Numbered from the stretch's first letter, positions 25,288 through 45,015 are shown. The stretch is DNA of 45,295 nucleotides from Bacillota bacterium (GCA_029778075.1 JAKORA010000069.1:1-45295), one strand, 5' to 3'. Notes: generated from the sequence alone by a model not told the origin. Numbers and translations: made by a program.

Positions 25288-25290
25288 TTT

Positions 25291-27816: not shown

Positions 27817-28478
27817 TTTCTTTGTTTTTCCCTGACCTGCTCCAGTATATATTCAACCAGTTGCTCCGCCTCATACAACCCGTTTTTTAGTGCCGTTTCA
27901 AAAACAACCACCTTGGGGTTTATCTCTGCAATATACCTCTTCATCACATTGACATCCACATCAACATAAGGCAGCAAATCTGCTTTTGTGATTACAGCCG
28001 TATGCGCATTCAAAAAAGCCGTTGGATATTTTACCGGCTTGTCTTCTCCCTCTGTAACGCTTAAAATTACCATGCGCATATCTTCACCCAGATCGTAGGT
28101 TGCCGGGCAAATCAGATTTCCCACATTTTCTATTATTAAAAGGTCCAGCGAATCAAGCTCCAGCTTTTGGAGCTGATTTTCAATCATTTTGGCATCCAGA
28201 TGGCATCCGCCGTTTGTATTTATTTGCAAGGCTGTAACACCGGTTTTTTCTATGCGCAGCGCATCATTTTGCGTGGCAAGATCGCCTTCTATGACGGCTG
28301 TCCGCAGGTGCGCGCCAAGCCTGGGCAAGATGTTCTCCAAAAGAGTCGTCTTGCCTGAACCGGGTGATCCCATCATGTTGATCACATATAAGCCCGATGA
28401 TTTGAATTTATTTCTGTTCTCCGCTGCTATTTGTTTATTCAAAGCGTTTAAGTCCTGATTTATCTCCAATCTTGTCAT
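27813..28478 (-). CDS. hypB: HypB Ni-metallochaperone GTPase
   Basis: 221 aa. P-loop GSPGSGKTT, ENVGNLICP, NKADL-like TKADL. No His-rich stretch. Confidence 0.9.
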   Translation of the reverse strand: MTRLEINQDLNALNKQIAAENRNKFKSSGLYVINMMGSPGSGKTTLLENILPRLGAHLRTAVIEGDLATQNDALRIEKTGVTALQINTNGGCHLDAKMIENQLQKLELDSLDLLIIENVGNLICPATYDLGEDMRMVILSVTEGEDKPVKYPTAFLNAHTAVITKADLLPYVDVDVNVMKRYIAEINPKVVVFETALKNGLYEAEQLVEYILEQVREKQRK

Positions 28479-28849
28479 CCTTTACTTTCCCTCGCAATCC
28501 CATTTTTTTCCTCAACATCTATACTTTCTATATATACCTCTTCTCCACCTACGATCACGAAACTCGTGCTTTTACACGCGGGACAAACAATGGGAAATTC
28601 AGCTACCTGATATTCATGGCTACAGGAATCACAACGAGCCACAGCAGGCAAATATTTTATCTCGAGTTCCGCTCCCTTCATGATTCCCTCCTGCGTTAAC
28701 GCTTCAAAAGCAAAAGAAAGGGCATCCGGCAATATGTTAGCAAACTTTCCTACAGATATGACTACATGTTTTACCTGCGCCACGTTATGACTTACGGCAA
28801 CCTGCATTACGGTTGCCAGCAAATTTTGCATCAATGCCGTCTCGTGCAT
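28475..28849 (-). CDS. hypA: HypA Ni-insertion zinc protein
   Basis: Start set at the internal ATG at 28849, giving the canonical MHE N-terminus (AAGGAGGcaaat-ATG). Zinc site CDSC...CPAC. The ORF-track start 28930 is rejected. Confidence 0.9.
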   Translation of the reverse strand: MHETALMQNLLATVMQVAVSHNVAQVKHVVISVGKFANILPDALSFAFEALTQEGIMKGAELEIKYLPAVARCDSCSHEYQVAEFPIVCPACKSTSFVIVGGEEVYIESIDVEEKNGIARESKG

Positions 28850-29121
28850 ATTTGCCTCCTTCAATCCAAAATAGCCAATCAGCGCTATTTCAGTCCATGG
28901 CCCAGGTAAACTTGTCCAAAAATTTAACACTTCTTTTATTCATGGTTAAGTGACTTTTCCCTGTATAAAACCTAACAAAATAATTATCAGGTGTCAAGTT
29001 TGTAAATCATAGTGTTTATCTTCTGATAATGCCAATCATTTCAATAAAGCTTTAAACAAGTATAAGGATGATAATTCAAACATTTTTAGGACTTCTTGTG
29101 CAGGCTTCTTATAATCAAGAT

Positions 29122-30006
29122 TTATAATACGCCTCCGGTGAAGCAAAAAAGGAGATAAAAAAGCAGGAAAAGAAGGGGAACTGTAACAATTGCTATTTTG
29201 TCCTTTCTGGACAGGGTCTGGGAATACATGTAGGTCCTTGCAGGATAAAGGCCGAAAGCCCGGCTTTCCATCGAAATGGTCAAAAAATCCACCTTGCTTA
29301 AGGCCGAGATCACCAGCGGTACCAACAGATACCTCACCGCTCTTAGCAGCTTCCTTGGAGCAAGCCCCTCCAGCTCAATCCCCTTGGCCATCTGGGCATT
29401 CTTTACCTGTTCCAGTTCCAGGTGAAAAACGGGAATAAAGCGCAACGCCGTAATAAGCATGAAGCCAAACCTGTACGGCAGTCCGGCCTGCATTAGAGCA
29501 TAGGCAAGCCTGTTGGGATCCGTCGTGGCCACAAAAAGATAGCTGGAGCCGATAATATTCACAAAGCGCAGCATCATGCTTAAACCTCCCCAAAGCCCTT
29601 TCGACCAAACCTGCAGGCACAATGGCCCCAGATAAAGCTGCTGGAGCAAAATACCTTCTTTTACTGACAAAAGCTGGACCAAAAAAATTAAAAGGCCAAA
29701 GAGAAGAATAAAGCGTAGCTTGCGGGAAAAAAAAGCCGGGCCCAGTCCGGCCAGACCGTAAAAAGCCAGTAGCAGGCAGAAAAGGATCGCTCCCCCCGTA
29801 AAAGAGGGCACGGCAAAAACAGTGAAGCTAAAGCTAAAAAGCACCACCAGTTTTACCAGGGGATGGATACGGTGCAAAGGAGAGTTGTTTTCAACATAGG
29901 TCAGCCCTGGAAAGAACCCTTTTATGACAGATGATGTCCTGTTAGAGACGATATGACGGCAGAAGCCATCAAATTTACCTTCTTTCTCCCGGTGCAGGAA
30001 GCTCAT
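29122..30006 (-). CDS. ecfT: ECF transporter transmembrane (T) component, EcfT/CbiQ family
   Basis: Polytopic, with the CbiQ-like layout and the conserved ARG-containing helices (ALRFIP.., RAFG). The first ATG compatible with the upstream ATPase stop is 30006. The ORF-track 30144 start lies deep inside the ATPase gene. Confidence 0.8.
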   Translation of the reverse strand: MSFLHREKEGKFDGFCRHIVSNRTSSVIKGFFPGLTYVENNSPLHRIHPLVKLVVLFSFSFTVFAVPSFTGGAILFCLLLAFYGLAGLGPAFFSRKLRFILLFGLLIFLVQLLSVKEGILLQQLYLGPLCLQVWSKGLWGGLSMMLRFVNIIGSSYLFVATTDPNRLAYALMQAGLPYRFGFMLITALRFIPVFHLELEQVKNAQMAKGIELEGLAPRKLLRAVRYLLVPLVISALSKVDFLTISMESRAFGLYPARTYMYSQTLSRKDKIAIVTVPLLFLLFYLLFCFTGGVL

Positions 30007-31540
30007 ACCCGGCAGGCAGATACTCTTCCCTCCCCAGCTGTGCCAGCTTCGCCAGCGCCTCATCCACAGGCGCATCAATGATAAGCTTTCCCTCAGCCAG
30101 GAAAAGAATCCTCTGGCAGCAGGAGACAACCACCTCCGGCTCATGGCAGGTCATCAAGGTTATCCCCCCCCGCGCGCGGTGCTCTCTCAAGGCTGCCATC
30201 AGCAGGCCAAGCCGGCCGCTGTCCTGACCTACGAGGGGCTCATCCAGGATTAAGACACTGGGAGAATAGGCCAGGACCGAAACCAGGGTTAACCTCTTTT
30301 TTTCACCCAGGCTCAGGGTAAAGGGATTTTTCTCTTTATATTGCCGCAGCTCGAACTTTTCCAGTAACCGGTCAACCTTACCTTCAATTTCCCGCGGATC
30401 TTCATCGCTCAAAAAATGCGAGGCCAGCGCTGCCTCCCTGAAAACGGTATGCTCAAAGATCTGGTGATTGGGATTTTGAAAGGTAAGACCCATCTCCTGC
30501 GCACGGCGTGTAACTTTTTTTCCGGTTATATCTTCGCTATGCAAATAAATTTTCCCTTCACCCGGCTTAAGAAGTCCCAGCAGCGCCAGTAAAAGGGTGG
30601 TTTTACCGCTGCCGTTATCCCCCATCACGGCAAGTATCTCTCCCGGGTAGGCAGAAAAACTTACCCCGCTGAGAACTTTCTTTCCTTCGTAACCTGCGCT
30701 CAGGTTATTTACGGAGAGGAGAGGTGTCCTTTCTTTCTTCTCCTCCAAGGGGTCCGGGGTTTTGTTTTGCGGCGGCAAAGCTCCCTCCCGGCCATCCTCT
30801 CTACCGGCAGCCAATATAGCGGCTGAAACATATTTCTTCTGCGCTTCCCCGGCAGTGCCCTCCCCAACAATTCTGCCGCTGTCCATGAACAGCAGTCGAT
30901 CTGAAATGGAAGCAAGCCGCTCCAGGCGGTGCTCAATCACAATAATAGAGATTTCCTGCTCCTCCCTCAGCTTTTCCAGGGTTCGGAGCACCTCCATGGT
31001 ACAAAAAGGATCCAGGTTCGCCGTGGGTTCATCCAGGATGAGAAGGGCAGGGGTCATCGCCAGCACCGAGGCAATAGCCACCCGCTGTTTTTCGCCCCCG
31101 GAAAGGGTATGGAGCTTCCTTTCCCTTAAATTCTGAGCTCCCACGGCTTGCAGGGCAAAGCTGACCCGCTCGCGTATTTCCTCCGGAGCTATACGCAGGT
31201 TTTCCGGGCCGAAAGCCACCTCATCGTTTACCGTAAGGGTACAAAGCTGGGCTTCCGGATCCTGCTGCACCAGGCCCACAATCCCGGAAAGCCCTCCCGC
31301 AGGGTAATCCCTGGTATCCCGGCCCAGTATGCGGACAACCCCTTCCATTTTTCCAGGGTAAGCGTGGGGGATAAAGCCGGCCAAACAGAGGGCCAGGGTG
31401 GATTTACCGCAGCCACTGGGGCCTGTTATCGTCAGGAACTGGCCCGGGTCTACCCGCAGGTTGATCCTCTCCAGCGCCGGAGAGGTTGAACCGCTGTATG
31501 TAAAAGAAAGATCCTGGATATCAACGACCGGTTCGCTCAT
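29975..31540 (-). CDS. ecfA: Fused tandem ECF ATPase (EcfA1-EcfA2/CbiO-like)
   Basis: 521 aa with two ABC cassettes: Walker A GPSGCGKST and GDNGSGKTT, signatures LSGGEKQR and LSLGEKKR, Walker B LILDEP twice. Confidence 0.9.
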   Translation of the reverse strand: MSEPVVDIQDLSFTYSGSTSPALERINLRVDPGQFLTITGPSGCGKSTLALCLAGFIPHAYPGKMEGVVRILGRDTRDYPAGGLSGIVGLVQQDPEAQLCTLTVNDEVAFGPENLRIAPEEIRERVSFALQAVGAQNLRERKLHTLSGGEKQRVAIASVLAMTPALLILDEPTANLDPFCTMEVLRTLEKLREEQEISIIVIEHRLERLASISDRLLFMDSGRIVGEGTAGEAQKKYVSAAILAAGREDGREGALPPQNKTPDPLEEKKERTPLLSVNNLSAGYEGKKVLSGVSFSAYPGEILAVMGDNGSGKTTLLLALLGLLKPGEGKIYLHSEDITGKKVTRRAQEMGLTFQNPNHQIFEHTVFREAALASHFLSDEDPREIEGKVDRLLEKFELRQYKEKNPFTLSLGEKKRLTLVSVLAYSPSVLILDEPLVGQDSGRLGLLMAALREHRARGGITLMTCHEPEVVVSCCQRILFLAEGKLIIDAPVDEALAKLAQLGREEYLPAGYELPAPGERR

Positions 31541-31572
31541 AAGAACTCCTCAGTTAATATAATTGTTAAAAA

Positions 31573-32655
31573 TTATTCTACAAGAATCCTGTTTACCATC
31601 TTTACCCAGTACCCTCCTTCGTAATTGGCGGCAATCAGGCGTAGCGTATCCTCCTCCCGGATGAGCAGCATCCGGTCGTCATTTAACACTTCCTGCAGTG
31701 CAAATTCCACTGTGTAGCCGTCCGTAGCCGCAACGGTAAGCTTTTTAGCCCCCTCCAGGGGAGAAGCCTCCTGTAAAATTACCTTCAAAGGGATACCGGT
31801 ATACTCCCGCGGGGGAACCCGGGTGTACTCTCCCTTTAGTTCGGCTGTTATTGTTGTCTCATACCGGCCGAAGTCGGAAAGCTGGAAAGAGAGGGGTTTT
31901 TCCACCGCCCCCTCCACCCGGCAGCGGGGGCCTACCCAGGGAGGCTCAAAAACAGCGGCAAAGTAGTAAACAGCTCCGATGGCCAGCAGTAGCGTCAGTA
32001 TAGCTGTTACAGCCAGCCTGAATCGGCTGCGGGCTTTATTCATGACCCCGCCCGTCGTCGCCTCGGTGGCGGTCTCTTCCCCTGAAAGGCCCGAAATTCG
32101 AAAAGGCCTGGCCTGCAGCACGATCTCCAGCACACTGTGTCCAAAGCTGCCCGCCAGCAGAACACCGGAAACAAAGGCGATAGCGCTGATAAAGAGAAGG
32201 TAGCTGACAGGGGCGCCGGCAAAATAGAGGAGCTGGAAAACAAAAACGTTGGAAGCAGCTGAAACACCTCCGGCCAGCATGTAGCTTCCCAAACTATGAC
32301 GCCTGCTGACCAGCAGGACAACATCAACCAGCACACCCTGAACCAGGGAAACCAGGATGATGGCCACCCCATGGCTACTGCCGGTGAGCAGTTCGATTAC
32401 TCCTTTGAGCAGGCCGACGGCGGTAGCGGCGCCTGGCCTGCGGATCAACCCCGCCGCCAGGATGAACCAGAATATATGCAGCCCGGAAACAAACTGCCCG
32501 GCACCGAAAGGAACGACAAAAATGCGGTTTAAAAGATTGCCCAGGTAGCCGACATAGGTACTCATCACCCCGCCGATTCCGCTCAAAACGGCAACGATAA
32601 GGAGATCCCTATTGCTCAGGTAATATTCTTTACGTTTTTTTAGCTCCTCTTTCAC
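31573..32655 (-). CDS. ECF S-component-like membrane protein fused to an extra TM helix and a C-terminal Oxidored_molyb-like extracytoplasmic domain
   Basis: 360 aa, GTG start (GGGGGttataca-GTG). aa 1-183 form six hydrophobic helices with a generic ECF S-component look. aa 211-236 form a further TM helix (RFRLAVTAILTLLLAIGAVYYFAAVF). aa 237-360 are soluble: VEGAVEKPLSFQLSDF...YTGIPLKVIL...ATDGYTVEF...YWVKMVNRILV. Confidence 0.65.
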   Translation of the reverse strand: MKEELKKRKEYYLSNRDLLIVAVLSGIGGVMSTYVGYLGNLLNRIFVVPFGAGQFVSGLHIFWFILAAGLIRRPGAATAVGLLKGVIELLTGSSHGVAIILVSLVQGVLVDVVLLVSRRHSLGSYMLAGGVSAASNVFVFQLLYFAGAPVSYLLFISAIAFVSGVLLAGSFGHSVLEIVLQARPFRISGLSGEETATEATTGGVMNKARSRFRLAVTAILTLLLAIGAVYYFAAVFEPPWVGPRCRVEGAVEKPLSFQLSDFGRYETTITAELKGEYTRVPPREYTGIPLKVILQEASPLEGAKKLTVAATDGYTVEFALQEVLNDDRMLLIREEDTLRLIAANYEGGYWVKMVNRILVE

Positions 32656-32802
32656 TGTATAACCCCCTATTCACAATTCGCCATAAACCGGACACCGGGA
32701 TTTATCCACTCCTCGTCAGGACACTGCTCCCGCAAGGGTTCCGGCAAGGGTAAAAGCAGGCGGAACAAGCGCCGGCCGGTGTGCACTGCCGGCGGCTGAT
32801 GC

Positions 32803-33369
32803 TCAATCAATGCGGATAATCATTACATTGCGCACCCAGTAAGGCCTGTTTGCCTCACCCGGCTCTCGCTGGCCGACGACCAACTGGAAGGGATTGCCTT
32901 TTTCCGGGTTATACTCCCTGCCGTTTTCCTCCCAGGCCAGGATCATCTTGTACTTTGTTTGGGGATTTTGCTCGTCAATATAATCTTCCCGCTTGATATC
33001 CTCAAGAGGAAACTCCACCTCATAGCCGTCCTCAGCGATAAAAGTTACCCTGGAGGCATGATCCTGCAAGCTCACTTTTTCATTTAAAAGATGCCATACC
33101 CAGACTCCTTTAAAATGAACATATTCCTTCGACCCATATGAGTTAAGGGCGAAATAAGTGGCTTCCACCAGGCCGTCTTCCATGGACTTCAGCTCATCCA
33201 GCGTGAAGGAAGCCCTGCTTTGTACGGCGTCCCCCTTAATCACAACTGTGCCCCGGGGAACTTTTTCGGACTGAGCACATCCACACCCTGCGGCGCAGGT
33301 GATCAGAAGCAGCAAAAAAGTAATAGTTGCTGCCTTATTTTTATAAACACACTGGCACAACCACTGCAT
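32803..33369 (-). CDS. Small lipoprotein consisting of one Oxidored_molyb-like module
   Basis: 188 aa. Signal peptide with a lipobox-like LLITCAAGC, then VVIKGDAVQ..FTLDELK...FKGVWVWHLL...AEDGYEVEF...FQLVVG...YWVRNVMIIRI. SD tAGGAGGcactttgc-ATG. Confidence 0.6.
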   Translation of the reverse strand: MQWLCQCVYKNKAATITFLLLLITCAAGCGCAQSEKVPRGTVVIKGDAVQSRASFTLDELKSMEDGLVEATYFALNSYGSKEYVHFKGVWVWHLLNEKVSLQDHASRVTFIAEDGYEVEFPLEDIKREDYIDEQNPQTKYKMILAWEENGREYNPEKGNPFQLVVGQREPGEANRPYWVRNVMIIRID

Positions 33370-33516
33370 GCAAAGTGCCTCCTAAATTGTCAGACATAAT
33401 AGAATGAAAGTTTTTTACTTTGTGACGGCCATATTATTTTATAGATTTTACAGCGAAGAATTGGGCAGAAGACTTATCGCGAAAACCTGTCAAAGTTTCC
33501 ACATCATATTCCAGCT

Positions 33517-33547
33517 CCGGGGGCGGGTGCTGAAGCCTCGCCCCCGG
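33517..33547 (-). terminator. GC-rich hairpin downstream of the S-layer protein gene (possible terminator or stabiliser, no U-tract)
   Basis: CCGGGGGCG-13 nt-CGCCCCCGG, a perfect 9-bp stem, about 100 nt after the stop at 33646. Confidence 0.35.
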
Positions 33548-33645
33548 CCGTTTGCCTCAATTACGTTTCCACCGTACCAACCTAATTATTGAGCTGTGAG
33601 AAAGCACCTGTTCTCTCGCAGCACATTATCAAAACATAATCGATA

Positions 33646-36600
33646 TCATTCTCGCTTGGCCAGCACATTCACAATAACCGCAGCGGCTTCAGCTCTGGTA
33701 GCTTTACCCTGCGGCCGCAGTGTGTTGTCAGGATATCCGCTAATGACCCCATTTTTCACCGCGGCGGCCACAGCTTCCCTGGCCCAGGCAGAGATACTGC
33801 CGCTGTCCAAGAAAGAGAGCTCTTCCGCTACCGGTGTCAATTCGGCGGCCTTCACGACCATTACAGCCAGCTCCTCGCGTGTGATCGCCTCATCCGGTCC
33901 AAATGTATCATCGTTATAACCGCTGATGATACCATATGATGCTGCTGTAGAAACAAACCCCTGTGCCCAGTGACCTGAAGTATCTGCAAAGGTTTTGTCA
34001 CTTTTGGGTGCCAATTGGAAGGCTTTTACAAGAACGGTGGCAAATTCCGCACGGGTGATATTATTGTCCGGTTTGAAGGTGCCGTCCGGATAACCGCTGA
34101 TAGCCTCGAGTGCGACCAGTTTCCTAATGCTGCTTTCAGCCCAGTGGCCCACAATGTCTTTTAACATTTCTGCATCCGAAACCAGCTCAATACGCACAAT
34201 CTGCCCAATGGATGTTTGCCCGCTGACAGCCGGCCCGACAAGCCGCAGCGGCCAACTGCTGTCGGACTCCGGTATGGGTGCCCCGTTTAATCTATTGGCG
34301 ACAATGTAGTTGCTGTTGCGGATAATATCCGCGCTGTCGAGCGTTACCTTATGACCGTCAGCTGCCGTGAGCACCACCTGGTACCCGGCAAGGGCCAGAT
34401 CATCATTGAAGGCGTTCTCGGAGTGCTGGTCGGCATCATCGACAAATCCGGCGAGGAACCACAGCGGCATCCCTTCCCAGACCCGTCCTTGAGAATCGGT
34501 GTAAGTTGCCTTGTGTTCGGCGCCGAACTGACAGGCGAGCGCCTGCTCGAAATAGGTCCTGCTCACATCATACTCCAGGCCGCCAAGAGCCTTTCCGTCT
34601 AGCTTCAGTGTCCAATCGCCCTGGGGTATGGAGTATACCCTGATTTCCGTAATCCACTTGGCTGATAAGCCGGCACAGGATGGATACATGACACCGTCCA
34701 TATAATTATAGTGCCAGTATTTTTCCGGCAGCGTCTCGTGCATATCCCACTGTCCGTAGACGTTGTCACCCCCTGGAGCAAAAAACAGGCGCATACCATC
34801 CTGATACTCGGGTACATACTTTCCATCAGCCCACCAGGCCAGGATGGCCTCTCCCTGGCGTGCCAGCACCGAAGGATCGGGATAGATGGAGGAGTAGGGA
34901 AGCCTGGTCTCGAAACCGTCTTTGGCCACAAACACTATCTCTGTACCGGCACCCATGTGACCTACAAGCCCGCAAAGATCCCTGACGCGGGTGCCCTTTA
35001 CGGCATTGGCGATCTTGAAGCCGCCAGGATAGGTCTCGTCAGGATCCCAGAGATCATCGGGTTTCATCGTGAGCCCCTCGAATTTGTATACCGTTGTCCC
35101 GTCGCCAATCACCTCGAGTTCACTCTCCATCCAGCGATAATCAACTGTTACCTCCTTAAGGATGGTAGTTCCGTCTTCGGCGTACTTGACGATACGGATT
35201 GAGGGTAAGGGCTGAACAGTGCCAAAAGATGCCAGTTCAATTTCCACGATATTACCCACGCTGGTACCACCAAGGGCGCCGTCTTTGGCAACACCGTTTC
35301 CGACCAGCCTGAGGGGGGCTGAGTTGCCGGTAAGCGGCGCACCGTTGCATTTATTGGCGACAATGTAATCGTTGCTCCAGGCCACATCAGCGCTGGCGAA
35401 ATCTTTGGTGTAGCCGTCGCCGGCTTTTACCAGGATGGTGTAACCGGCCGTGGCCTGATTGGCATTAAAGGCGTGGGGTTGCCGGTCATCAACCCAGCCT
35501 GCCAGCAGCCAGAGGGGTATACCCGACCAGACGTTGCCGTCTTTATCAGTCCATTCTTTAAGATGGCCTGAATGCGGGCAGGCGAGTGCCTCCTCGAACT
35601 CAGCCTGCGAGATGACATCGCTGATCTTGCCGGTAAGTTTAAGATTCCAGCTGCCGGGAGCAGGCTCGGGGGTCTGCAGCTCGGGTATTTCTATCCGTAC
35701 AATGTTGCCGACAGCAGAGCCTCCAAGGGAACCGCCCTCTTTGGCCACACCGTCGCCGACCAGGCGCAGGGGCCACAATGAACCGGCAAGGGGTTCACCG
35801 TTACACTGATTGGCGATAATGTAAGCGTCACTGCGGGCCACCTCCGTGCTCGCAAAGGTCTTGCTATAACCGTCCCCGGCCATCACTTTCACGGTATAAC
35901 CCGCGGCGGCAACGCTGTCATTAAAGGTCCAGTGGGCGCCTTTCTCGATGTCGTCCACCGCACCGAGAAGCACCCAGAGGGGCACGCCGGACCAGACGTT
36001 GCCATCCTTGTCGGTCCATTCCCTGTAGTGGCCTGAACCCGCACAGGCCAGCCCTTCTTCAAACTCCTGCTGGCTGATGGTATCCCCTACATCACCGACC
36101 AGCTCCAGGGTCCATCCCTCATCCGGTTCGGGGAGTTTGGAAAGCTCAATGCGCACAATGTTGCCTACCTGCTGCCCGCCAAATACAGCCGGACCTTTGA
36201 GATGGAGCGGCCAGCACGGTTTTCCTGCCGGAGTTTGGAGCGGAAGCGGCTCCCCGTTAAGGGTATTGGCTACGATATATCCGTTGTTGCGGGCGATGTC
36301 CGCGCTATCCAGAGTTGTCTTCCAGCCGTCACCGGATATCAAATCCACTACGTAATGCTGGGCGGCCAGCTCATCGTTGAAGTTGAAATGGTCAGGACCT
36401 TCGTCGGGGTCATCATCAACCATAGCTACCAGCAGCCAAAGCGGCATGCCCCCCCACACATTTCCTTCCTCATCTGTCCAGGAGACGCGGTGGGTAGGAC
36501 GGCAGGATAGGGCCTCCTCGAAGTAGGCTTTGGTTACGGAAGTATTTTTTGCACCGGAGAGTTGAAGGGTCCAGTCCGTAGGTACAGTTCCTCCCCTTGA

Positions 36601-37173
36601 GGCGTCCGTAGGGATAGTTCCTCCCGTTGAGATAACAGTTTTTACTGCAGCGGTAGCCGCTGCCTTGACGGCCGTTAAATCTGAGGGGTCATCGATACCG
36701 GCGGCGTAGTAAAACTCAACCCTGTCACCGTTAACAAGTTCAATCAAGTTCAGGGCGCCGGCGGGGTTGTTGTAACCGTCTTTATAGACATCATTGACAT
36801 AAGCGTACCAGTAACCCGGATTTTTGCGTGTATAACTCCCCACGTTGTCGAGGAGAAGAGCGCCTGATGAGGCGTAGTTCTTGTCGGTGACATCATAGGT
36901 GAAGCCGCCGGCAACAGCGGCTGCTTGAAGCGCCCCCAGCGGTGTGGTTTCGCTCACAGTGTATTCTACCCCAGAGTTGTAAGCGTTTACGTTAAAAGTT
37001 TCGTCAGCTGACAAAGCAACTTCCCCATCGTAAAGAATGTCCATTGTCAATTTCCCGGCCGCCGCGGTACTAACTGGCTGCGGTACGACTGCTGTCAAGA
37101 CGAGTGCTGCGGCCAGCACCGCTAGCGACATAACCCGTAAAACTTTCTGCCTATACCTTGTCAGTTCAATCAT
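33646..37173 (-). CDS. SLH-anchored modular cell-surface protein: signal peptide, DUF4430/transcobalamin-like domain, 4 Oxidored_molyb-like modules plus 1 divergent module, 3 SLH domains
   Basis: 1175 aa. DUF4430-like aa 41-157 (GYWYAYVND...LVNGDRVEFYY). Modules at aa 201-344, 354-496, 509-647 and 854-997 each start W(T/N)LxL.G and end GNIVRIEL-like. Divergent module at aa 659-848. Three SLH repeats at aa 1003-1172 (e.g. ISGYPDGTFKPDNNITRAEFA). SD tAGGAGGtagacaagc-ATG. Confidence 0.85.
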   Translation of the reverse strand: MIELTRYRQKVLRVMSLAVLAAALVLTAVVPQPVSTAAAGKLTMDILYDGEVALSADETFNVNAYNSGVEYTVSETTPLGALQAAAVAGGFTYDVTDKNYASSGALLLDNVGSYTRKNPGYWYAYVNDVYKDGYNNPAGALNLIELVNGDRVEFYYAAGIDDPSDLTAVKAAATAAVKTVISTGGTIPTDASRGGTVPTDWTLQLSGAKNTSVTKAYFEEALSCRPTHRVSWTDEEGNVWGGMPLWLLVAMVDDDPDEGPDHFNFNDELAAQHYVVDLISGDGWKTTLDSADIARNNGYIVANTLNGEPLPLQTPAGKPCWPLHLKGPAVFGGQQVGNIVRIELSKLPEPDEGWTLELVGDVGDTISQQEFEEGLACAGSGHYREWTDKDGNVWSGVPLWVLLGAVDDIEKGAHWTFNDSVAAAGYTVKVMAGDGYSKTFASTEVARSDAYIIANQCNGEPLAGSLWPLRLVGDGVAKEGGSLGGSAVGNIVRIEIPELQTPEPAPGSWNLKLTGKISDVISQAEFEEALACPHSGHLKEWTDKDGNVWSGIPLWLLAGWVDDRQPHAFNANQATAGYTILVKAGDGYTKDFASADVAWSNDYIVANKCNGAPLTGNSAPLRLVGNGVAKDGALGGTSVGNIVEIELASFGTVQPLPSIRIVKYAEDGTTILKEVTVDYRWMESELEVIGDGTTVYKFEGLTMKPDDLWDPDETYPGGFKIANAVKGTRVRDLCGLVGHMGAGTEIVFVAKDGFETRLPYSSIYPDPSVLARQGEAILAWWADGKYVPEYQDGMRLFFAPGGDNVYGQWDMHETLPEKYWHYNYMDGVMYPSCAGLSAKWITEIRVYSIPQGDWTLKLDGKALGGLEYDVSRTYFEQALACQFGAEHKATYTDSQGRVWEGMPLWFLAGFVDDADQHSENAFNDDLALAGYQVVLTAADGHKVTLDSADIIRNSNYIVANRLNGAPIPESDSSWPLRLVGPAVSGQTSIGQIVRIELVSDAEMLKDIVGHWAESSIRKLVALEAISGYPDGTFKPDNNITRAEFATVLVKAFQLAPKSDKTFADTSGHWAQGFVSTAASYGIISGYNDDTFGPDEAITREELAVMVVKAAELTPVAEELSFLDSGSISAWAREAVAAAVKNGVISGYPDNTLRPQGKATRAEAAAVIVNVLAKRE
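34183..36573 (-). repeat. Intragenic tandem module repeats of the S-layer protein gene
   Basis: Module coordinates from my residue count: 36142-36573, 35686-36114, 35233-35649, divergent 34630-35199, 34183-34614. Confidence 0.8.
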
Positions 37174-37222
37174 GCTTGTCTACCTCCTAACTGGACGAGC
37201 CCGTGTAATAAAAGTTGGATTT

Positions 37223-37259
37223 TAAAACAACTCCTTTTAAAACATTGCCTTCTAAAACA
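37223..37259 (-). promoter_or_regulatory. Three direct TGTTTTA repeats at 15-nt spacing upstream of the S-layer protein gene
   Basis: Plus-strand TAAAACA at 37223-37229, 37238-37244 and 37253-37259. The two distal copies extend to CAATGTTTTA. They lie 50-86 nt upstream of the ATG at 37173. Confidence 0.35.
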
Positions 37260-37437
37260 TTGATTACATCAGTGTTTACGTTCGCTTGAAAAAGTGTTAC
37301 CAAAAGTTCACAAGAGTTAAGAACTAAGGGCTTAATTCCCATCCTTGCTGGTCCGTACTGTCAGTCTATGCTATCTGGTAATGTATTGATTGGTGGAATC
37401 AACTTACCAAAAGTGAGCTAAGTTCCGTAAAGCTATA

Positions 37438-38901
37438 TTATCTGGCAATCGTGATCTTTTCAGTCTCGCCTTCGTAGACTACATCCGCGCCTATGGTCTC
37501 GCTGACAAAGCGCAAGGGAACGAAGGTGCGGCCGGGTGGAAGCGTCGTTGGGGGACAATCAATAGTCTGCTCCGCTCCATTAACCCGAACAGTGCTGGAA
37601 CCCAGGGTCAGGATAATCTCTTTCTCCCCGTCGGTAATAGTAACCCGTCCTGTTTCTGGATCCCAACCAACTTGGGCGCCCAGGGCCTCGCTGACAAAAC
37701 GCACCGGCACCAGCGTGCGGTTGACCTCGGCATTAAGATAAGGCGCCGCATCCAGGGTGTAAGGCGCACCGTTGACGGTGGCTTCCATACTTCCAATGGT
37801 GAGCACAATGACTTTTGGCTCTGATTTCTCAGCTTCCGTATCTTTCCCGGGCTCTGCCCCTGTTTCCGGCTCTTCCACAGCGGGAGGTACTGCCGGAGAA
37901 CCGTCACCGGGCTCCTGGCCCTCAATAAAGTATTCAAAGGTAACAACGTCGCTGTCCAGCTTGCCGGGGCCGATTGTTACCGCTTTAATCGTGGTGTTCT
38001 TGGTAAGAGGTCCAATGGGATGATTGATTTGCCCCAAAACATCCGCCCGGGACGACCACCACCTGCTGGCAATCCAGTTGTACATAGGGCTGTTCATGGT
38101 CGGGGTGCTGCCGTCGGTGGTGTAATAAATCTTGTCGTCATCCATGTGCAGGTTACTCAACGTTACCATGGTGCCGGCAGGCACCGTGCCGCCCGGCGGG
38201 TTGGCTTGCGGGGCGTCCCATTTCTGCGGCTTGTCAGTGAGCACCTCGATCTTGTTCAGGTATTTAACGAACAGGTTTCCCGTCTGCTCGGTTACCGTCC
38301 GCTGCCCCAACATCAGCAGCAGGGTATTCAGTTCATTCATATATTCGGGATTATCACTGCCCTCCACGCTGATCAGGCCAATAATCGTCTCCACCGGCAC
38401 TGCGCCCGAAGGGTCACCTGGGATATGCCCATCACCGTCGCCGCCGCCAACTTTGAAATTAGGAAAACGATAGCGCTTGTCCTGGAACAGCTCCTTCATC
38501 GTAAGCGTTACTGTGTAGCCGTCAACTGCCGTAAACTTAAGCATCGTAGCTTCTTCTTCCTTAATTCCAGCTTTAAGGAGCAGATCCCACAATTTAACCC
38601 CCTTCCCCACATACCACTTCTTGGTGGGCCAGGTATTAATACAGCTGTATAGATACTGGTGCTGCTCCATTTTCTCCAACTCTTCCCGGGTAAAGGTCAC
38701 CGGGTTCGCCACCCCTTTTCCCGTGATCTCCAGAGAATGCGAGGTGGCAAGGGCAACCCCGGGAGCCACCAAGTTAAGCGCAACGGCAAGTAGCCATAAA
38801 ACTATAACAGCCGCCGTCAACCTGCAGAAGTTAAACTTAATTCGGCACCTTTTCAATAGAGGAAACGATAGCCTTCTCCAAGCTCTTTTACCGGTTATCA
38901 T
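37438..38901 (-). CDS. Exported protein: Oxidored_molyb-like module, chitobiase/Fn3-associated-type beta domain, Pro/Glu linker, copper-amine-oxidase-N-like stalk domain
   Basis: Start set at the ATG at 38901 (GGGGAGGtatttttc-ATG, MITGKRAWRR...) rather than 38976. Contains LEITGKGVANPVTFTREELEKM...WYVGKGVKLWDLL...AVDGYTVTL, then KIYYTTDGSTPT, and two C-terminal repeats ...RTLVPVRFVSEALGAQV / ...RTFVPLRFVSETIGADV. Confidence 0.7.
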   Translation of the reverse strand: MITGKRAWRRLSFPLLKRCRIKFNFCRLTAAVIVLWLLAVALNLVAPGVALATSHSLEITGKGVANPVTFTREELEKMEQHQYLYSCINTWPTKKWYVGKGVKLWDLLLKAGIKEEEATMLKFTAVDGYTVTLTMKELFQDKRYRFPNFKVGGGDGDGHIPGDPSGAVPVETIIGLISVEGSDNPEYMNELNTLLLMLGQRTVTEQTGNLFVKYLNKIEVLTDKPQKWDAPQANPPGGTVPAGTMVTLSNLHMDDDKIYYTTDGSTPTMNSPMYNWIASRWWSSRADVLGQINHPIGPLTKNTTIKAVTIGPGKLDSDVVTFEYFIEGQEPGDGSPAVPPAVEEPETGAEPGKDTEAEKSEPKVIVLTIGSMEATVNGAPYTLDAAPYLNAEVNRTLVPVRFVSEALGAQVGWDPETGRVTITDGEKEIILTLGSSTVRVNGAEQTIDCPPTTLPPGRTFVPLRFVSETIGADVVYEGETEKITIAR

Positions 38902-38989
38902 GAAAAATACCTCCCCTTTTCTAATTTTTGGCATTAACAAAACCACAGTGAATAACGCCAACGGTAAACGGCGCAACCGTCAGCTAAAA

Positions 38990-39322
38990 CTATTCATCGC
39001 CAGTATCGGTCAGCATAAAGAGCTGCCCTGTTTCAGGGTCTTTATAGACCGTACCAATCTTTTGGTAAAGTTTACCGCGATCCCTGGTTTCGATCAGATC
39101 CTCACGTATCTTTGGAGCTTCTGTCACCTCCCGTCCGCGGCTCACGTTAATACGCTCCCCCACCGGCCCCAGGTCGATATTCCAGTAAACAGCCAGAGCA
39201 AGCATTAGCCCGCAGGCAAATACCAGCATGGCATCCACGATATTAACAACCCCCTCCAAGGGGTTTACTTCCTCCGCTGCCCTACGCCTTAAGTATCTCC
39301 TGCCTCTCAGCCTCCCGTCCAC
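38990..39322 (-). CDS. ExbD/TolR-like single-TM protein (DUF2149-type)
   Basis: The GTG at 39322 has GGAGGTGtttgacc upstream, so it is preferred over the ORF-track TTG at 39328. Arg-rich N-terminus, then NPLEGVVNIVDAMLVFACGLMLALAVYW (ExbD-like TM helix) and a short soluble tail. Overlaps the ExbB-like gene by about 41 nt. Confidence 0.6.
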   Translation of the reverse strand: MDGRLRGRRYLRRRAAEEVNPLEGVVNIVDAMLVFACGLMLALAVYWNIDLGPVGERINVSRGREVTEAPKIREDLIETRDRGKLYQKIGTVYKDPETGQLFMLTDTGDE

Positions 39323-39953
39323 GGTCAAACACCTCCAGCAGGCTCTCCATCAGCGCTTCCAGAGAGCCCAAATATTCCTCGTACCACCTTTTGCGCAGCC
39401 GGGAAATAACAAAAGCGACACCGGCAGCAGCCAGGCCAGCTACCGTGGTATCAAAGGCGATGAGCAGAGAATCAGCCAGCGCCTGCGTATCTCCCTGGCT
39501 AAGGGCGATTATCCCCGGTCCGAGTGGGATAAGCGTGCCCATTAAGCCGAACATGGGTGCCAGGCGCGCTACCAGGTCGGTCCTATCGGTTATCCTGGAA
39601 TAATGCCGTTCCTCGCCGGCAAGCAGGCGGCGCCCCAGCGCCTCCAAGGAAGCGGCAGGCAATTTAGCGTGGCTGATCAGTTCACCCAAAACTGCTTTTT
39701 GCCGCCGGAAAAGGCCGCTTTGCTCGACCTCTTCCATAATCTGCGCCGCACTCTTTACTTGGAAGGCATCGATCAGCCCCGGCAGGTCAATTTTTTTTCT
39801 GCGCCGTTCTGTGCATACTTCCACCAGCAGGGCACCGAGCTCAAACGCCGCCAGAGCCAGAAGCAGCAGCAGGATAACAATAGTAGGGATTAACAAACCG
39901 GAGGAGATACTGTGCAACGTATCTTTTAAGGGTATTAAGATAGATTCAACCAC
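39282..39953 (-). CDS. MotA/TolQ/ExbB-family proton-channel protein
   Basis: 223 aa. N-terminal TM helix, cytoplasmic helical region, then LAPMFGLMGTLIPLGPGI...IAFDTTVAGLAAAGVAFVI, typical of the MotA_ExbB channel helices. GTG start 7 nt after the upstream stop. Confidence 0.8.
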   Translation of the reverse strand: MVESILIPLKDTLHSISSGLLIPTIVILLLLLALAAFELGALLVEVCTERRRKKIDLPGLIDAFQVKSAAQIMEEVEQSGLFRRQKAVLGELISHAKLPAASLEALGRRLLAGEERHYSRITDRTDLVARLAPMFGLMGTLIPLGPGIIALSQGDTQALADSLLIAFDTTVAGLAAAGVAFVISRLRKRWYEEYLGSLEALMESLLEVFDRGREAERQEILKA

Positions 39954-39959
39954 TTTGTT

Positions 39960-41753
39960 TTATAGCTCCTTTACGTATTCTCTGTATTTTTTCCTTGCAC
40001 CTGAAAGAATACAAACCAATAAAAAGGCTGCCGTAAAAAGATCCAGATCCTTTTGCTGCTCTGGAAGGGGAAGGGGTATGGTATAATCGAGCGACATCTC
40101 GAATACCTGCACTTCGGGAGGGCTGCTTTCCGGCTGGCCTAAGGATTCATCGCCTGTTGTAAAGGCGACTGCCAGCTCCTCTTTCTTTGCCAGGTACTGC
40201 CAGTTGTCTTCCGGCAACGGCAGCTTGTCTTCCGCTGTTAAATCGGGATACTCCGGATCTGTTATCTCTTCCTGTTGCAGCTTCTGGGCGGGATTCTCCG
40301 GCTCTTTAGCGGCGGTTGACACGAGAATCTCTACATCCTCTTCGGCAAGGTGCCGGTCATCAACTTCCGGCAACATCACAGGAGGTTCCTCAGGCCTCTC
40401 TTCCTCCGGAAGATTATTCTCTTCTACTGCTGCCATACCCGGCTCCTCTGACTCCCCGTCGGGGCCGTTAATTACACAGGTGGCCGTATAGCTGCCGTCT
40501 ACCGTTTCAACGGTGATCACGGCTGTGCCGGGGCCGACAACCGTCACCAGCCCCCTGGTATCCACCGTGGCCACGCTGGTATCGCTGGAACGCCAGATGA
40601 CATCCTTGTTTGTAGCATTAAAGGGCTCTACAGTTGCCTGCAACTGGAATGTGTGCCCAACCGGGAGGTCAAGTGCGGTTTGATCGAGAAATACACCGCT
40701 AGGCGGCCCGCCGGGGATCTTTGTCGGATCATCCGCTTCAGGATCAATGTAGAATGTGTAGGTGGCCACCTCGCTGTCCTCCTTGCCCGGACCGATCGTT
40801 TTCATCTTGAGGACGACCACATCCCGGCCTTCTACATTGTTACTAATCATCTCTTTTACAATCTCAATGGGGATGTTAATACTGTCCACATCGCCTCTTT
40901 GCTCCCACCAGCGCCTGGCGCTCCAGTTAAACATCGGACTGTTCAAAGTCGGCTCGCTGCCGTCCGTGGTATAATAAATTTTGTCGGCGTCAGTATTCTT
41001 ATTTTCCAGTTTAAGCTGGGTCCCCGGGGGCAGCGCCGTCCCATCGGGGATATTCACTTTCGGGGCATCCCATTTTTCCAGGGGTGTGGTCAGCACCTCG
41101 ATTTTCTTAATATATTTAACAAATAAAAGCCACGTTTGCTCGGTTACAGCTCGCTGCCCCAGCACCAGCATCGGGGCATTTCTATCGTCCATTTCTTCGG
41201 GGTCCTCGCTATCCTCAGCAGCTACCAGGGAGATAATCGGCTCAACTTCCATCGCCCCCTCCGATGAACCGGGGATACTCCCATCAGTGGGATGATTCTC
41301 CTTTAAACCGGGAAAATAGTAACGTTTGTCCACCAACAACTCCTTAACAGTCAGAGTCATCTCGTAGTCATCGGCCGCGATGAATTTAATAAGCGTGGCC
41401 TCCTTCTCCTTGAACCCTGCCAGGGAGAGAAGGTCGCTTAGTTTTACTCCCCTGGCTATGTACCACCTCTTGGTTGGCCAGGTGTTGATCGTGCTGTAGA
41501 CGTGCTCGTACTGCTCCATTGCCTCAAGCTCGGCCTGGGTAAGCTCCAGCGGGGTCGTCACCCCTTCCCCGAAAATCTCCAGTGCCACCTTTTCGGCAAA
41601 GGCAGGTGCCGGTGCTATTAGATTGGGCATAAAGGCAAACAGTAACAAAGTGATGACAGCCATCAAGCCTTTGCCAAACCAAATTCCTGACCGGGGTTTA
41701 AAATATCGTATAATTACCGCTCCTCCTCTCAAAAAAGTAATATGCATGCTCAT
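39960..41753 (-). CDS. Exported, C-terminally membrane-anchored paralog of 37438-38901: Oxidored_molyb-like module, chitobiase/Fn3-associated-type domain, Big_2 domain, acidic E/P-rich stalk, TM anchor
   Basis: Contains LEIFGEGVTTPLELTQAELEAM...WYIARGVKLSDLL...AADDYEMTL, KIYYTTDGSEPT, Big_2-like LPVGHTFQLQATVEPFNATNKDVIWRSSDTSVATV, and the tail LFTAAFLLVCILSGARKKYREYVKEL. The start is uncertain: ATG at 41753 or 41747, ORF-track TTG at 41768, or just after the GAGAGGAGGAG at about 41725. Confidence 0.7.
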   Translation of the reverse strand: MSMHITFLRGGAVIIRYFKPRSGIWFGKGLMAVITLLLFAFMPNLIAPAPAFAEKVALEIFGEGVTTPLELTQAELEAMEQYEHVYSTINTWPTKRWYIARGVKLSDLLSLAGFKEKEATLIKFIAADDYEMTLTVKELLVDKRYYFPGLKENHPTDGSIPGSSEGAMEVEPIISLVAAEDSEDPEEMDDRNAPMLVLGQRAVTEQTWLLFVKYIKKIEVLTTPLEKWDAPKVNIPDGTALPPGTQLKLENKNTDADKIYYTTDGSEPTLNSPMFNWSARRWWEQRGDVDSINIPIEIVKEMISNNVEGRDVVVLKMKTIGPGKEDSEVATYTFYIDPEADDPTKIPGGPPSGVFLDQTALDLPVGHTFQLQATVEPFNATNKDVIWRSSDTSVATVDTRGLVTVVGPGTAVITVETVDGSYTATCVINGPDGESEEPGMAAVEENNLPEEERPEEPPVMLPEVDDRHLAEEDVEILVSTAAKEPENPAQKLQQEEITDPEYPDLTAEDKLPLPEDNWQYLAKKEELAVAFTTGDESLGQPESSPPEVQVFEMSLDYTIPLPLPEQQKDLDLFTAAFLLVCILSGARKKYREYVKEL

Positions 41754-42020
41754 GCATATTTTGGTCAAAATTTTTCTATTATGTAGTAAATTCTTACACT
41801 ACACTATTTTATTCCTTGATAAACACAATTTATCTTCACTATGCACATATATTCATAATAGGAGCAAAGTCTTCCTTAAAATCTATTATATAACAACTAC
41901 AACTACATTTAAAGATGTAAATAAAGAGTAACAACGCCCCTCCTTTTGAAACTATACATTATTACAATTATACGCTTTTCCGATACCTTTTCTGCATAAA
42001 ATTCTTGTATAATTCCTCTT

Positions 42021-42061
42021 ATAATTAAACTTCATGGTGGCAAGGAACTGCTGCCATGAAG
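42021..42061 (-). terminator. Rho-independent (bidirectional-looking) terminator after the metallophosphoesterase gene
   Basis: CTTCATGG..GCA-loop-TGC..CCATGAAG (8 bp, a 2x2 internal loop, then 3 bp) about 50 nt after the stop at 42112. Followed on the minus strand by TTTAATTAT. Confidence 0.6.
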
Positions 42062-42111
42062 TTTGCCTTTTCAATTTGCCGTTTTGTTTGTTCAGGTTGT
42101 GTGAGCTCCTG

Positions 42112-42391
42112 TTAGATCTCTACCAGTGCGTTTAACGCATTGTTTAAGCGAGCTGCCGCCTGGTCCACTTCCTCCTGGCCGGCATTCTCGTTCTGGAAGA
42201 CCCGTTCGGCCACCAGCAGCATGTTCGAAACCTGTCTCCAGGAACGGGATGTATAAGCCGCCGGGTTCAGGGAACGGGCTTCGTTGATGGCCGCCTCCAG
42301 GGCTGTTTTATCCGCTTTTTCTACCAGCTGCGCCATGGCGGCTTCAAGCCGGGCCAAAGCCTGGTCTATGGCAGCCTGAGTGACATGCTCC
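42112..42391 (-). repeat. Copy A of a 280-nt near-identical segment (3' end of the coding region)
   Basis: Aligns base for base with 45016-45295. I counted about 21 mismatches in 280 nt by hand. Confidence 0.9.
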
Positions 42392-44243: not shown

Positions 44244-44854
44244 CTAAGACTCAGTTCCCCAGACCGCTTCAGGCGCACCATTGGAAGCCTGGACCGCTTC
44301 CACTACGCCGGAGAGCTCGTACTCCGCTTTCATATACTCGTTCCCGGTCAGCTCGCCATCCAGCGTGACGGTCATGGAAAGGGTCACAAAGTCGCCGGCC
44401 TCCAGGGGATCACCCACGTAATACAGGTAATCGCCGTCAACTTGCCAGTCGTCAGGATCATAGGAACCCGATGCTTGTGGGGTTAAGCCGAAAGTGATGT
44501 TCTGGTATATGTCATCTTCGGATTCGAAAGCGTCGAAGTAGGCAACGGGATCAGCTATTACGTTACCTTCGCTATCAAAAAAGGTCCACGTCCCACCCAT
44601 GTTGACTCTTAAGACAATGGCCTTGGTACCAATATTGTAGATGTCCCATTCCACCACATTGGTGTCCCCGGGTTCCAGTTCATGTTGTCCGGGCCTTCTA
44701 AAAGATAGCTTCCCACGTCAATCTCTACTTTGCCGGCTTTGAAGACAATGGGGTCCGTTTCTTTTTCCGCTGTGAACCAGGCCATGGTCCCTCCGCCGAT
44801 CAGAATCCCCACTAAAAGCAGCGTCAGCATGGTTACAACTAATTTTGCTCTCAT
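44244..44854 (-). pseudogene. TasA/camelysin-family protein with a SipW-type signal peptide, split by a 1-nt frameshift
   Basis: ORF 44609..44854 (MRAKLVVTMLTLLLVGILIGGGTMAWFTAEKE..., SD GGAGGTaaggaaaa-ATG) and ORF 44244..44657 are adjacent frames of one gene. Adding one base in the CCCGGGG run (plus 44666-44672) restores ...NMNWNPGDTNVVEWDIYNIGTKAIVLRV... Confidence 0.7.
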
Positions 44855-45015
44855 TTTTCCTTACCTCCGGTTTGTTTTTTTGACAAACCGGCAGCCAGGC
44901 TGCCTCTTTTTGAGGAGGCCCTTGGCTTTGCGTCCCTGCCTCGCGACAGGTTTGCCTTTATCAATTTGCCGTTTGATGGTTTAAGTTAATGATTAAATAA
45001 AGCTCTTTTTAGTTT

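Follow-up and report, generated by a model that had tools for sequence, protein, structure and literature searches.

A candidate envelope-spanning scavenging and import system with repeated sulfite-oxidase-like modules and an ECF transporter in a Bacillota genome

The 45,295-nucleotide stretch of DNA analysed here, from an uncultured Bacillota bacterium of a biogas reactor (GCA_029778075.1, JAKORA010000069.1:1-45295; the window in what follows) carries a block of minus-strand genes in which one small domain recurs on five proteins, among them the S component of an energy-coupling factor (ECF) transporter. We put at about one half the probability that this block, together with a phosphoesterase gene and a kinase-like gene, specifies an envelope-spanning scavenging and import system of molybdenum/tungsten (Mo/W) cofactor metabolism. 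Its likeliest cargo would be a compound of the pyranopterin type: the molybdenum or tungsten cofactor (Moco/Tuco), molybdopterin, or a phosphorylated precursor or derivative. An earlier sequence-only reading had placed the block at 29122-41768 and proposed a capture and uptake system, leaning towards corrinoids as the cargo.

Relatives of the block were located through the fusion of the S component to the repeated domain, for which the protein collection yielded at least 402 relatives and the species-representative genomes 235 candidate loci. Locus counts and gene maps given below refer to the best 80 of these 235, except where D. gibsoniae (L090) or L091 is named. Their hosts include Syntrophomonadaceae, Pelotomaculum, Desulfotomaculaceae, Dethiobacteria, Thermovorax, Anoxynatronum and Fermentithermobacillaceae, and 14 are archaeal (Thermoplasmata, Methanobacteriota, Asgard). 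The gene map shows a universal core consisting of a protein with one module subtype (mod5), the S fusion, a fused double ATPase (AA) and the T component, so the prediction that the neighbourhood would be conserved was borne out.

A repeated module and its carriers

Searches with our own profile hidden Markov models (HMMs), one per subtype, found nine modules in the window's block and none elsewhere in the window. Subtype modA occurs once in a 602-aa surface protein (gene 39960-41768, minus strand; module 41076-41597) and once in the product of a 512-aa open reading frame (ORF) at 37438-38976 (minus strand; module 38221-38748), which shortens to 487 aa if the start is the ATG at 38901. An S-layer-homology (SLH) protein of 1175 aa (33646-37173, minus strand) contains, in order, an N-terminal domain, three modB copies (36148-36576, 35692-36120 and 35239-35652), the divergent mod5 (34624-35202), a fourth modB (34189-34617) and three SLH repeats (about 33649-34161). 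A 188-aa lipoprotein (32803-33369, minus strand; PF00174, E 4.4e-8) consists of a single module (modLipo, 32806-33258) behind the lipobox-like sequence LLITCAAGC, and the 360-aa S component (31573-32655, minus strand) ends in modS (31576-31929). The count, including the 4 + 1 arrangement on the SLH protein, is the one that had been read by eye.

Pfam and the family HMMs also define the surroundings of the modules. The 602-aa protein comprises a signal peptide, modA, Fn3_assoc/CHB_HEX_C and Big_2 domains, an acidic Pro/Glu-rich linker, a C-terminal membrane helix (about 39996-40046) and a short cytoplasmic tail; the 512-aa protein comprises a signal peptide, modA, CHB_HEX_C/Fn3_assoc and Cu_amine_oxidN1. 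Domain and topology evidence thus agrees with the five modes of attachment first proposed, namely SLH repeats, a C-terminal membrane anchor, a Cu_amine_oxidN1 domain, a lipid and an outward-facing position on the transporter itself. The graded depths drawn from them would imply a relay, whose order we regard as conjectural.

The five carriers all match PF00174 (Oxidored_molyb), with whole-protein E values from 4e-4 to 2e-19, and the four modB repeats match it individually (E 7e-5 to 3e-3); mod5 gave no Pfam match. Homology among the subtypes was the point on which the sequence-only reading had staked itself, and it held: profile-profile comparison of modA, modLipo, modS, modB and mod5 gave hhalign probabilities of 95.7-100 % (E 1e-9 to 1e-69), against at most 7 % for unrelated control domains. 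Since these comparisons link mod5 to the other subtypes, mod5 belongs to the family.

By profile and model comparison, the module is a degenerate version of the sulfite-oxidase (SUOX) fold, in keeping with the sulfite-oxidase/YedY assignment made from the sequence. Foldseek searches with the module from an AlphaFold2 (AF2) model of the S fusion retrieved SorA, SoxC, YedY, nitrate reductase and sulfite oxidase, all at probability 1.00, as well as the pterin-binding protein PruR (7KOS, and 7RKB with neopterin; target-normalised TM 0.58). Profile searches of the Protein Data Bank (PDB) connected the S component to SoxC (2XTS, E 7e-5) and the lipoprotein to PruR (7KOM, E 0.03), and a modA profile found no match there. 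PruR is a secreted, degenerate SUOX fold that lacks the Mo-ligating Cys and binds pterins (PMC11194511). The D-G-Y motif of modS (D70 G71 Y72) and its C-terminal W108 are conserved, partly so in other subtypes, and may be set beside the Tyr/Trp sandwich and Asn of PruR at the level of sequence only.

These folds raise the question of whether the modules are genuine extracytoplasmic Moco/Tuco enzymes engaged in surface redox chemistry, with the ECF transporter supplying or exporting their cofactor. The conserved Cys at the ligand position is missing from four of the five subtypes (modS, modLipo, modA and mod5), including that of the transporter, and in the window not one Cys is found in modS, in the mature lipoprotein module or in the module of the 602-aa protein; failure of this test in four subtypes argues that the system is not a SUOX enzyme. 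The modB subtype is different in this respect. Its Cys26 is kept in 77 of 81 module copies and its His30 in at least 85 %, 16-22 residues ahead of a G-x-P-L-W motif, so that Cys26 plausibly occupies a Mo-ligand position, its equivalence to the SUOX ligand Cys being unproven from sequence. Along with this residue and the fold itself, an enzymatic role would be consistent with the FMN_bind-Oxidored_molyb fusion described below, with the placement of Moco RNAs before Moco-enzyme genes, and with the ECF-mediated flavin export that has been proposed in Listeria. Against it, we saw no twin-arginine motifs when the signal peptides of the block were inspected by eye, Pfam revealed no heme or Fe-S redox partner in the window block, and tandem arrays of four or five modules on an S-layer protein suggest multivalent binding rather than catalysis. 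The terminator-type riboswitch platforms of relatives, discussed below, fit repression when cofactor is plentiful. On balance we think this account improbable.

Several large relatives of these proteins deserve mention in their own right. Giant surface proteins in which the module is joined to Shr-like_HID domains, a domain type of streptococcal hemoprotein receptors, are encoded in Desulfoscipio gibsoniae (locus L090, CP003273, 11845-20309) and in loci L001 (1-2659) and L091 (4599-7505). One protein of the D. gibsoniae cluster is a fusion of FMN_bind to Oxidored_molyb. The Shr-like_HID and FMN_bind fusions hint, at the level of sequence, that holo-proteins may be captured and that redox chemistry may take place outside the cytoplasm.

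An ECF transporter and its partners

The S domain matches PF09819 (E 2.9e-21), and both a PDB profile search (E 1.4e-14) and Foldseek (top match, target-normalised TM 0.76) identify YkoE (5EDL) as its closest structure. In the AF2 model of the fusion (mean pLDDT 77), six helices are followed by a disordered linker, a seventh helix (residues 205-235; about 31951-32043) and the beta-rich domain. ECF S components have six helices and end in the cytoplasm; a seventh helix after the six-helix domain therefore places the module outside. Downstream lie the fused double ABC ATPase, an A-A' unit of 521 aa (29975-31540, minus strand; two PF00005 stretches, E 1.2e-59), and a T component of the CbiQ family (29122-30144, minus strand; PF02361, E 2.9e-30 over residues 87-304), the true start of which is probably downstream of 30144. 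All the features of a dedicated (group I) ECF importer that can be examined in sequence are present, and we assign the transporter to that group, with transport itself predicted.

Full-length S fusions occur in all 80 fetched loci, where matches reach query residue 354-360 except in three loci truncated by contig ends, and the order S-AA-T is kept in every locus long enough to show it. In more than 20 loci the gene just before S encodes a homologue of the lipoprotein. Despite this conservation the families are poorly labelled: NCBIfam holds no model that reaches its cut-off for the S fusion, the lipoprotein, the stator pair described below or the kinase-like protein, and every homologue bears the annotation hypothetical, "ECF transporter S component", "DUF2149" or "molybdopterin-dependent oxidoreductase". 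One locus (L066) comes from a metagenome-assembled genome named "Betaproteobacteria bacterium", where a riboswitch is followed by the esterase/mod5, modB and S genes in Firmicute fashion. Gene arrangement and riboswitch sequence resemble those of L060, L062 and L064, and the contig is probably mis-binned rather than a proteobacterial example.

The block had been drawn too tightly, and two partners had been missed. The first is a secreted, purple-acid-phosphatase-like metallophosphoesterase of 633 aa encoded at 42112-44013 (minus strand; Pfam Pur_ac_phosph_N, Metallophos, Big_2 and FIVAR), whose sequence retains all of the metallophosphoesterase motifs. Homologues lie inside the block in ten loci (L012, L014, L015, L019, L020, L022, L024, L026, L056 and L090). 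In most bacteria, and in Thermoplasmata and Methanobacteriota, the stand-alone mod5 protein is itself a fusion of an N-terminal calcineurin-like/PAP-like metallophosphoesterase to the module; in the lineage of the window the esterase has a gene of its own, and mod5 forms part of the SLH protein. The fusions, and the position of the esterase gene in the middle of the Thermovorax block, indicate that the esterase belongs to the system.

The second partner is a protein of about 250 aa resembling protein kinases of the APH/RIO/Bud32 type. Its family is present in 24 loci and is outnumbered among the neighbours only by the module proteins/S fusions and by the ABC ATPases. In 20 of the 48 loci that extend far enough, its gene follows T within 2.5 kb; 5 of the 10 archaeal loci are among them. 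The window copy (11139-11894, minus strand), recognised by homology to the genes beside T in relatives, is situated 17 kb downstream of T, past hyp and hydrogenase genes, in a gene order seen again in other assemblies. It is 69 % identical to the copy in the closest relative, locus L007, where the gene directly follows T. The catalytic Lys and Glu and the D-x-N-x-R-N and D-x-E motifs are conserved, and the folds nearest to the AF2 model (pLDDT 90) are Rio1 and Bud32.

Between the two modA genes of the window lies a putative proton-channel pair: a 223-aa protein of the MotA/TolQ/ExbB family (39282-39953, minus strand; PF01618, E 1.8e-9) and an ExbD/TolR-like DUF2149 protein of 112 aa or shorter (38990-39328, minus strand; PF09919, E 1.7e-8). 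The former conserves a G-T motif in its second helix and a T-T motif in its third ('GLMGTLIPLGPG' and 'AFDTTVAGL'). The latter, which has 441 close homologues in Firmicutes, has one N-terminal membrane helix with an Asp (Asp32 in ORF numbering; motif I-[VA]-D-A-M) that is invariant in 8 of 8 aligned sequences and, by analogy, may work like Asp25 of ExbD. The 602-aa gene is always immediately upstream of the MotA-like gene and the 512/487-aa gene is the conserved partner immediately downstream of DUF2149; the C-terminal helix and tail of the 602-aa protein ('LSGAxKKYxEYxKEL') are conserved in 7 relatives. This makes the 602-aa protein a candidate force transducer, oriented opposite to TonB and with no TonB-dependent receptor present. 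An embedded motor pair had been noticed from the outset, and its hallmarks are confirmed, but it is not a universal part of the system. The cassette of modA protein, MotA, DUF2149 and modA protein occurs in constant order in 7 of the 80 loci, in D. gibsoniae and in one Tepidanaerobacteraceae genome; it is an accessory of a minority of lineages, those with SLH walls, and lies outside the universal core.

Every gene from 29122 to 44013 is on the minus strand. Between the phosphoesterase and 602-aa genes we found a 17-bp hairpin (42026-42065, strand not assigned) and a promoter-like site (41885-41913, minus strand), which suggest a transcript boundary. Taken with gaps of 264, 276 and 147 nt between later genes of the block, they leave room for several transcripts.

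Riboswitches, Mo/W genes and the likely cargo

In relatives, these genes are associated with Moco/Tuco riboswitches. Rfam detected RF01055 aptamers at gathering score upstream of homologues, including those of D. gibsoniae and L091. A custom covariance model built from two RF01055 aptamers (a MAFFT alignment of three was poor) gave 39 matches in 1.08 Mb, distributed over 30 of 80 loci and with 37 on the gene strand; all 11 matches that were re-tested pass the Rfam threshold. The riboswitch stands directly before the S gene in five loci (L033, L041, L049, L051 and L055), before modB-esterase/mod5-S-AA-T operons in about 17, and before large surface-protein and esterase genes in five (L012, L014, L044, L051 and L055). 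In L049 the aptamers are followed by terminator hairpins. D. gibsoniae has two aptamers in tandem, each furnished with a strong terminator, ahead of a string of esterase, SLH/module protein, 602-like, MotA, DUF2149 and 512-like genes. Such a layout would switch the genes off when ligand is plentiful. All of the riboswitches found lack P3, the class correlated with tungsten-cofactor metabolism, and when the class was described, Syntrophomonas wolfei was noted to have, as an unexplained exception, two P3-less RNAs ahead of "putative sulphite oxidase" genes (Regulski et al. 2008).

Gene neighbours in relatives carry the same signal. TupA-like binding proteins lie between riboswitch and S gene in L044; tupABC and the MOT1 molybdate transporter are encoded upstream in the same gene string as the ECF genes in L031 and L032; and in L051 the ECF genes adjoin those of a DMSO-reductase-family enzyme, MoCF_biosynth, MoeA, a TunR/ModE-like regulator and ModABC. 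The secondary hint of the sequence-only reading, that the cargo might be a pterin, Moco or an oxyanion, is where the riboswitches, the Mo/W gene islands and the PruR-like modules now point.

Three further observations belong to these islands. In L011/L001 a Moco riboswitch (15599-15718, minus strand) lies on the strand opposite the ECF genes, just downstream of a gene for a 67-aa TOBE (molbindin-like) protein, with no obvious gene after it. In Anoxynatronum (L034/L035, 15241-19400) a second Moco riboswitch follows T and precedes an ECF S component (PF12822) and a xanthine-dehydrogenase-family molybdoenzyme; the PF12822 protein may be a second S component that shares the same energising module. 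A TrmO/TsaA-like protein recurs beside the S gene or in the Mo/W island of seven loci (L011, L043, L044, L045, L051, L053 and L055), the L043 copy scoring 97 bits against TIGR00104 (cut-off 93).

The same signals could reflect capture and import of the metal itself, as tungstate, molybdate or thio-forms, with the SUOX-like modules serving as oxyanion traps in a manner suited to sulfidic anaerobic habitats. Moco/Tuco riboswitch control, the adjoining tupABC, modABC and MOT1 genes and the conserved Cys/His pair of modB would all be understandable on these terms, and purple acid phosphatases bind tungstate and molybdate tightly. Yet genes for conventional ABC transporters of oxyanions are already present close by, in some cases within one string with the ECF genes; oxyanion uptake would leave a phosphoesterase with intact catalytic motifs, and a kinase-like protein, without a role; and the module's closest small analogue is a binder of pterins rather than of anions. 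Moreover, we know of no ECF S component for an anion. We judge import of the metal as such to be unlikely. An organic cargo is preferred on four grounds: oxyanion transporters are encoded alongside, an intact esterase is fused to the module, the kinase-like partner is conserved, and the closest small analogue is a pterin binder.

An organic cargo need not be a Mo/W cofactor. Uptake or sensing of another pterin, whether of neopterin/monapterin type, methanopterin-derived or folate-related, would suit a PruR-like degenerate SUOX fold without Cys; bacteria excrete pterins, an esterase and a kinase would serve salvage of phosphorylated pterins, and carriers share biogas reactors with methanogens. 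The riboswitch class, however, is Moco/Tuco rather than tetrahydrofolate (THF) or another, the neighbours are Mo/W genes, and a signalling partner of the kind that accompanies PruR is absent. We therefore give little credence to a pterin unconnected with Moco.

For a pyranopterin-type cargo, the parts could be combined as follows. Sec-exported, cofactor-free SUOX-fold modules on wall-anchored proteins would capture the ligand outside, modB Cys/His perhaps ligating the metal, and the secreted metallophosphoesterase would trim it, for instance from dinucleotide or cyclic-phosphate forms. The Cys-less, PruR-like modules of the lipoprotein and S component would then receive the pterin, to be imported by the dedicated ECF transporter (YkoE-like S, A-A' and T) and possibly modified by the cytoplasmic kinase-like protein. 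In lineages with thick, SLH-type walls, the MotA/ExbB-DUF2149 stator might use the proton gradient for release or hand-over of the ligand by way of the 602-aa protein, with its C-terminal helix and Pro/Glu-rich spacer. The transport direction and the substrate of the esterase are, like the cargo, conjectures that the gene set makes reasonable.

Several facts weigh against this interpretation. No Moco riboswitch was detected in the window, whether at Rfam gathering scores, at Rfam E<=5 or with the custom model, and none in the closest full-block relatives (L007, L015, L024 and L026). Moco RNAs precede genes for Moco-using enzymes too, and the modB Cys, together with the D. gibsoniae FMN_bind-Oxidored_molyb fusion, makes an enzymatic role possible for some modules. 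Rio1 and Bud32 are protein kinases or ATPases, and a role of the kinase-like protein in re-phosphorylating a small molecule is therefore not established. The PruR pocket is reported to be too short for full Moco (PMC11194511). Finally, a prokaryotic importer of Moco or molybdopterin would, to our knowledge, be without precedent.

Corrinoid, nickel or thiamine/hydroxymethylpyrimidine (HMP) uptake was also considered. The first had been favoured, and the second offered as a weaker alternative, on the strength of a DUF4430/transcobalamin-like domain on the SLH protein and of neighbouring genes, and the YkoE-like S domain could be taken to favour thiamine/HMP. The domain stayed below threshold: at the SLH-protein N terminus, DUF4430 (PF14478) matches the window copy at E 0.15 and 4 of 7 homologues at E 0.075-0.15, covering only the C-terminal half of the profile, and the PDB gave no support for it. 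Rfam scans of the window and of 17 related loci detected no riboswitch of the cobalamin, TPP or NiCo class. In eight relatives neither the MttB/corrinoid genes nor hypA, hypB and hypF are beside the block, and the regulatory and neighbourhood signals all concern Mo/W. Thiamine/HMP was rejected as cargo in the absence of a TPP riboswitch and of thi genes. We regard this whole group of ligands as very improbable, and neither the corrinoid lean nor the nickel alternative is retained.

The neighbouring genes on which those proposals drew share the window with the block. Between the T and kinase-like genes, 11895-29121 (minus strand) encodes hypA, hypB, hypF, HypD and an AIR-synthase-like hypE, as well as an Ech/Hyc-type membrane [NiFe] hydrogenase with its HycI protease. 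The gene at 5887-7293 belongs to a non-pyrrolysine MttB-family methyltransferase; a PYLIS_3 match inside it (42 bits, 6240-6337, minus strand) has CAG where the model has UAG, and the ORF is uninterrupted. Its companions in 1320-7293 are two other MttB homologues, a corrinoid protein and a pterin-binding methyltransferase.

At the other end of the window, a c-di-GMP-I-GGC riboswitch (44886-44965, minus strand; 75 bits against a gathering score of 59) lies upstream of the overlapping ORFs 44609-44854 and 44244-44657 (minus strand). The N terminus they encode resembles a camelysin/TasA-type secreted protein (PF12389, E 5.8e-4), in a gene that seems to have been split by a frameshift. We found no terminator-like site on the minus strand between this riboswitch and the phosphoesterase gene, and read-through into the latter is therefore possible. 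As a control element of the block the riboswitch was rejected: it precedes the camelysin/TasA-like gene and was not seen in relatives. The C terminus of another surface protein, cut by the window end (45016-45261, minus strand), is about 90 % identical to the FIVAR C terminus of the phosphoesterase (42112-42360, minus strand), which looks, at the sequence level, like a recent duplication or exchange.

Prokaryotes are thought to make Moco de novo, and we know of no bacterial or archaeal importer for Moco or its pterin. Syntrophs depend on W/Mo formate dehydrogenases. Against this background we advance, tentatively and as a claim that may well prove too strong, that the genes represent the first prokaryotic salvage pathway for the Mo/W cofactor or its pyranopterin moiety. 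Apo-SUOX traps on the S-layer would take up cofactor from other cells, assisted by a module-tethered phosphodiesterase, a stator pulling through the Gram-positive wall and an ECF transporter with a docking module, in a pathway common to syntrophic Firmicutes, Thermoplasmata and Asgard archaea. If so, cofactor cross-feeding in anaerobic consortia becomes testable, and the 2008 exception, "sulfite oxidase" genes behind P3-less Moco RNAs, would be explained. PruR-type pterin-binding modules would acquire a role in transport, the S fusion would be the first S component of an ECF transporter to carry a docking domain on the outside, and an ExbB/ExbD-type motor would be seen to work in a wall without an outer-membrane receptor. 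Cultured carriers allow experiments: Desulfoscipio gibsoniae DSM 7213, Thermovorax subterraneus DSM 21563 and Anoxynatronum species.

Relation to known systems

The searched literature contains no description of the assembly or of an ECF transporter linked to Moco, in agreement with the initial impression that no characterised system has this composition. Parts of it have recognisable counterparts. The transporter is closest to YkoEDC of Bacillus subtilis, a group I ECF system for thiamine/HMP: the S domain is homologous to YkoE (5EDL), and a fused double ATPase and a CbiQ-type T component are encoded together with it. Unlike YkoEDC, the system described here has a seventh helix and an extracytoplasmic SUOX-like domain on its S component, its relatives are under Moco/Tuco rather than TPP riboswitches, and it adds surface binding proteins, a phosphoesterase, a kinase-like protein and sometimes a stator.

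The module itself finds its best small counterpart in PruR of Agrobacterium, Vibrio and Klebsiella (7KOS, 7KOM, 7RKB), which is likewise a secreted, degenerate SUOX fold of about 120-170 aa without a Mo-ligating Cys. PruR has a single domain and serves the c-di-GMP enzyme DcpA as signalling partner in Proteobacteria. The modules here, in contrast, occur in multiple copies, are anchored in the wall, form fusions with an esterase and with a transporter and are linked to Mo/W metabolism, and modB keeps its Cys; no DcpA-type GGDEF/EAL gene occurs in the block or is conserved beside it.

Deployment of one binding domain at several depths of the wall, ending at a membrane importer, recalls the Isd/Shr relay of NEAT domains for heme in Gram-positive bacteria, and some relatives of the present system carry Shr-like_HID domains. 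The domain in this case is SUOX-like and not NEAT, the anchors are SLH repeats, Cu_amine_oxidN1, lipid or a membrane helix instead of sortase, and the importer is of the ECF type, not a binding-protein-dependent ABC transporter. A phosphoesterase and a putative proton-driven stator are added.

The stator pair shares the membrane-helix Asp and the Thr motifs of ExbB-ExbD and TolQ-TolR. Its Pfam combination of MotA_ExbB and DUF2149 is that of HmuU/HmuV in the hmuYRSTUV systems of Bacteroidota, a comparison made by family annotation only, and both are associated, here putatively, with metallo-cofactor uptake. HmuU/HmuV are presumed to energise the outer-membrane receptor HmuR. The pair described here occurs in Firmicutes with SLH-type walls and is flanked by two module proteins, one with a C-terminal membrane anchor, and neither the window nor any related locus contains an HmuY hemophore, HmuR TonB-dependent receptor or CobN-like HmuS.

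The regulatory link is to the Moco/Tuco regulon, in which P3-less RF01055 aptamers precede these genes in relatives. There the "sulphite oxidase" genes were presumed to encode Moco enzymes, and the transporter, esterase, kinase-like and stator partners were undescribed (Regulski et al. 2008). The system is not PruR-DcpA, Hmu or Isd, though in its working it resembles parts of each.

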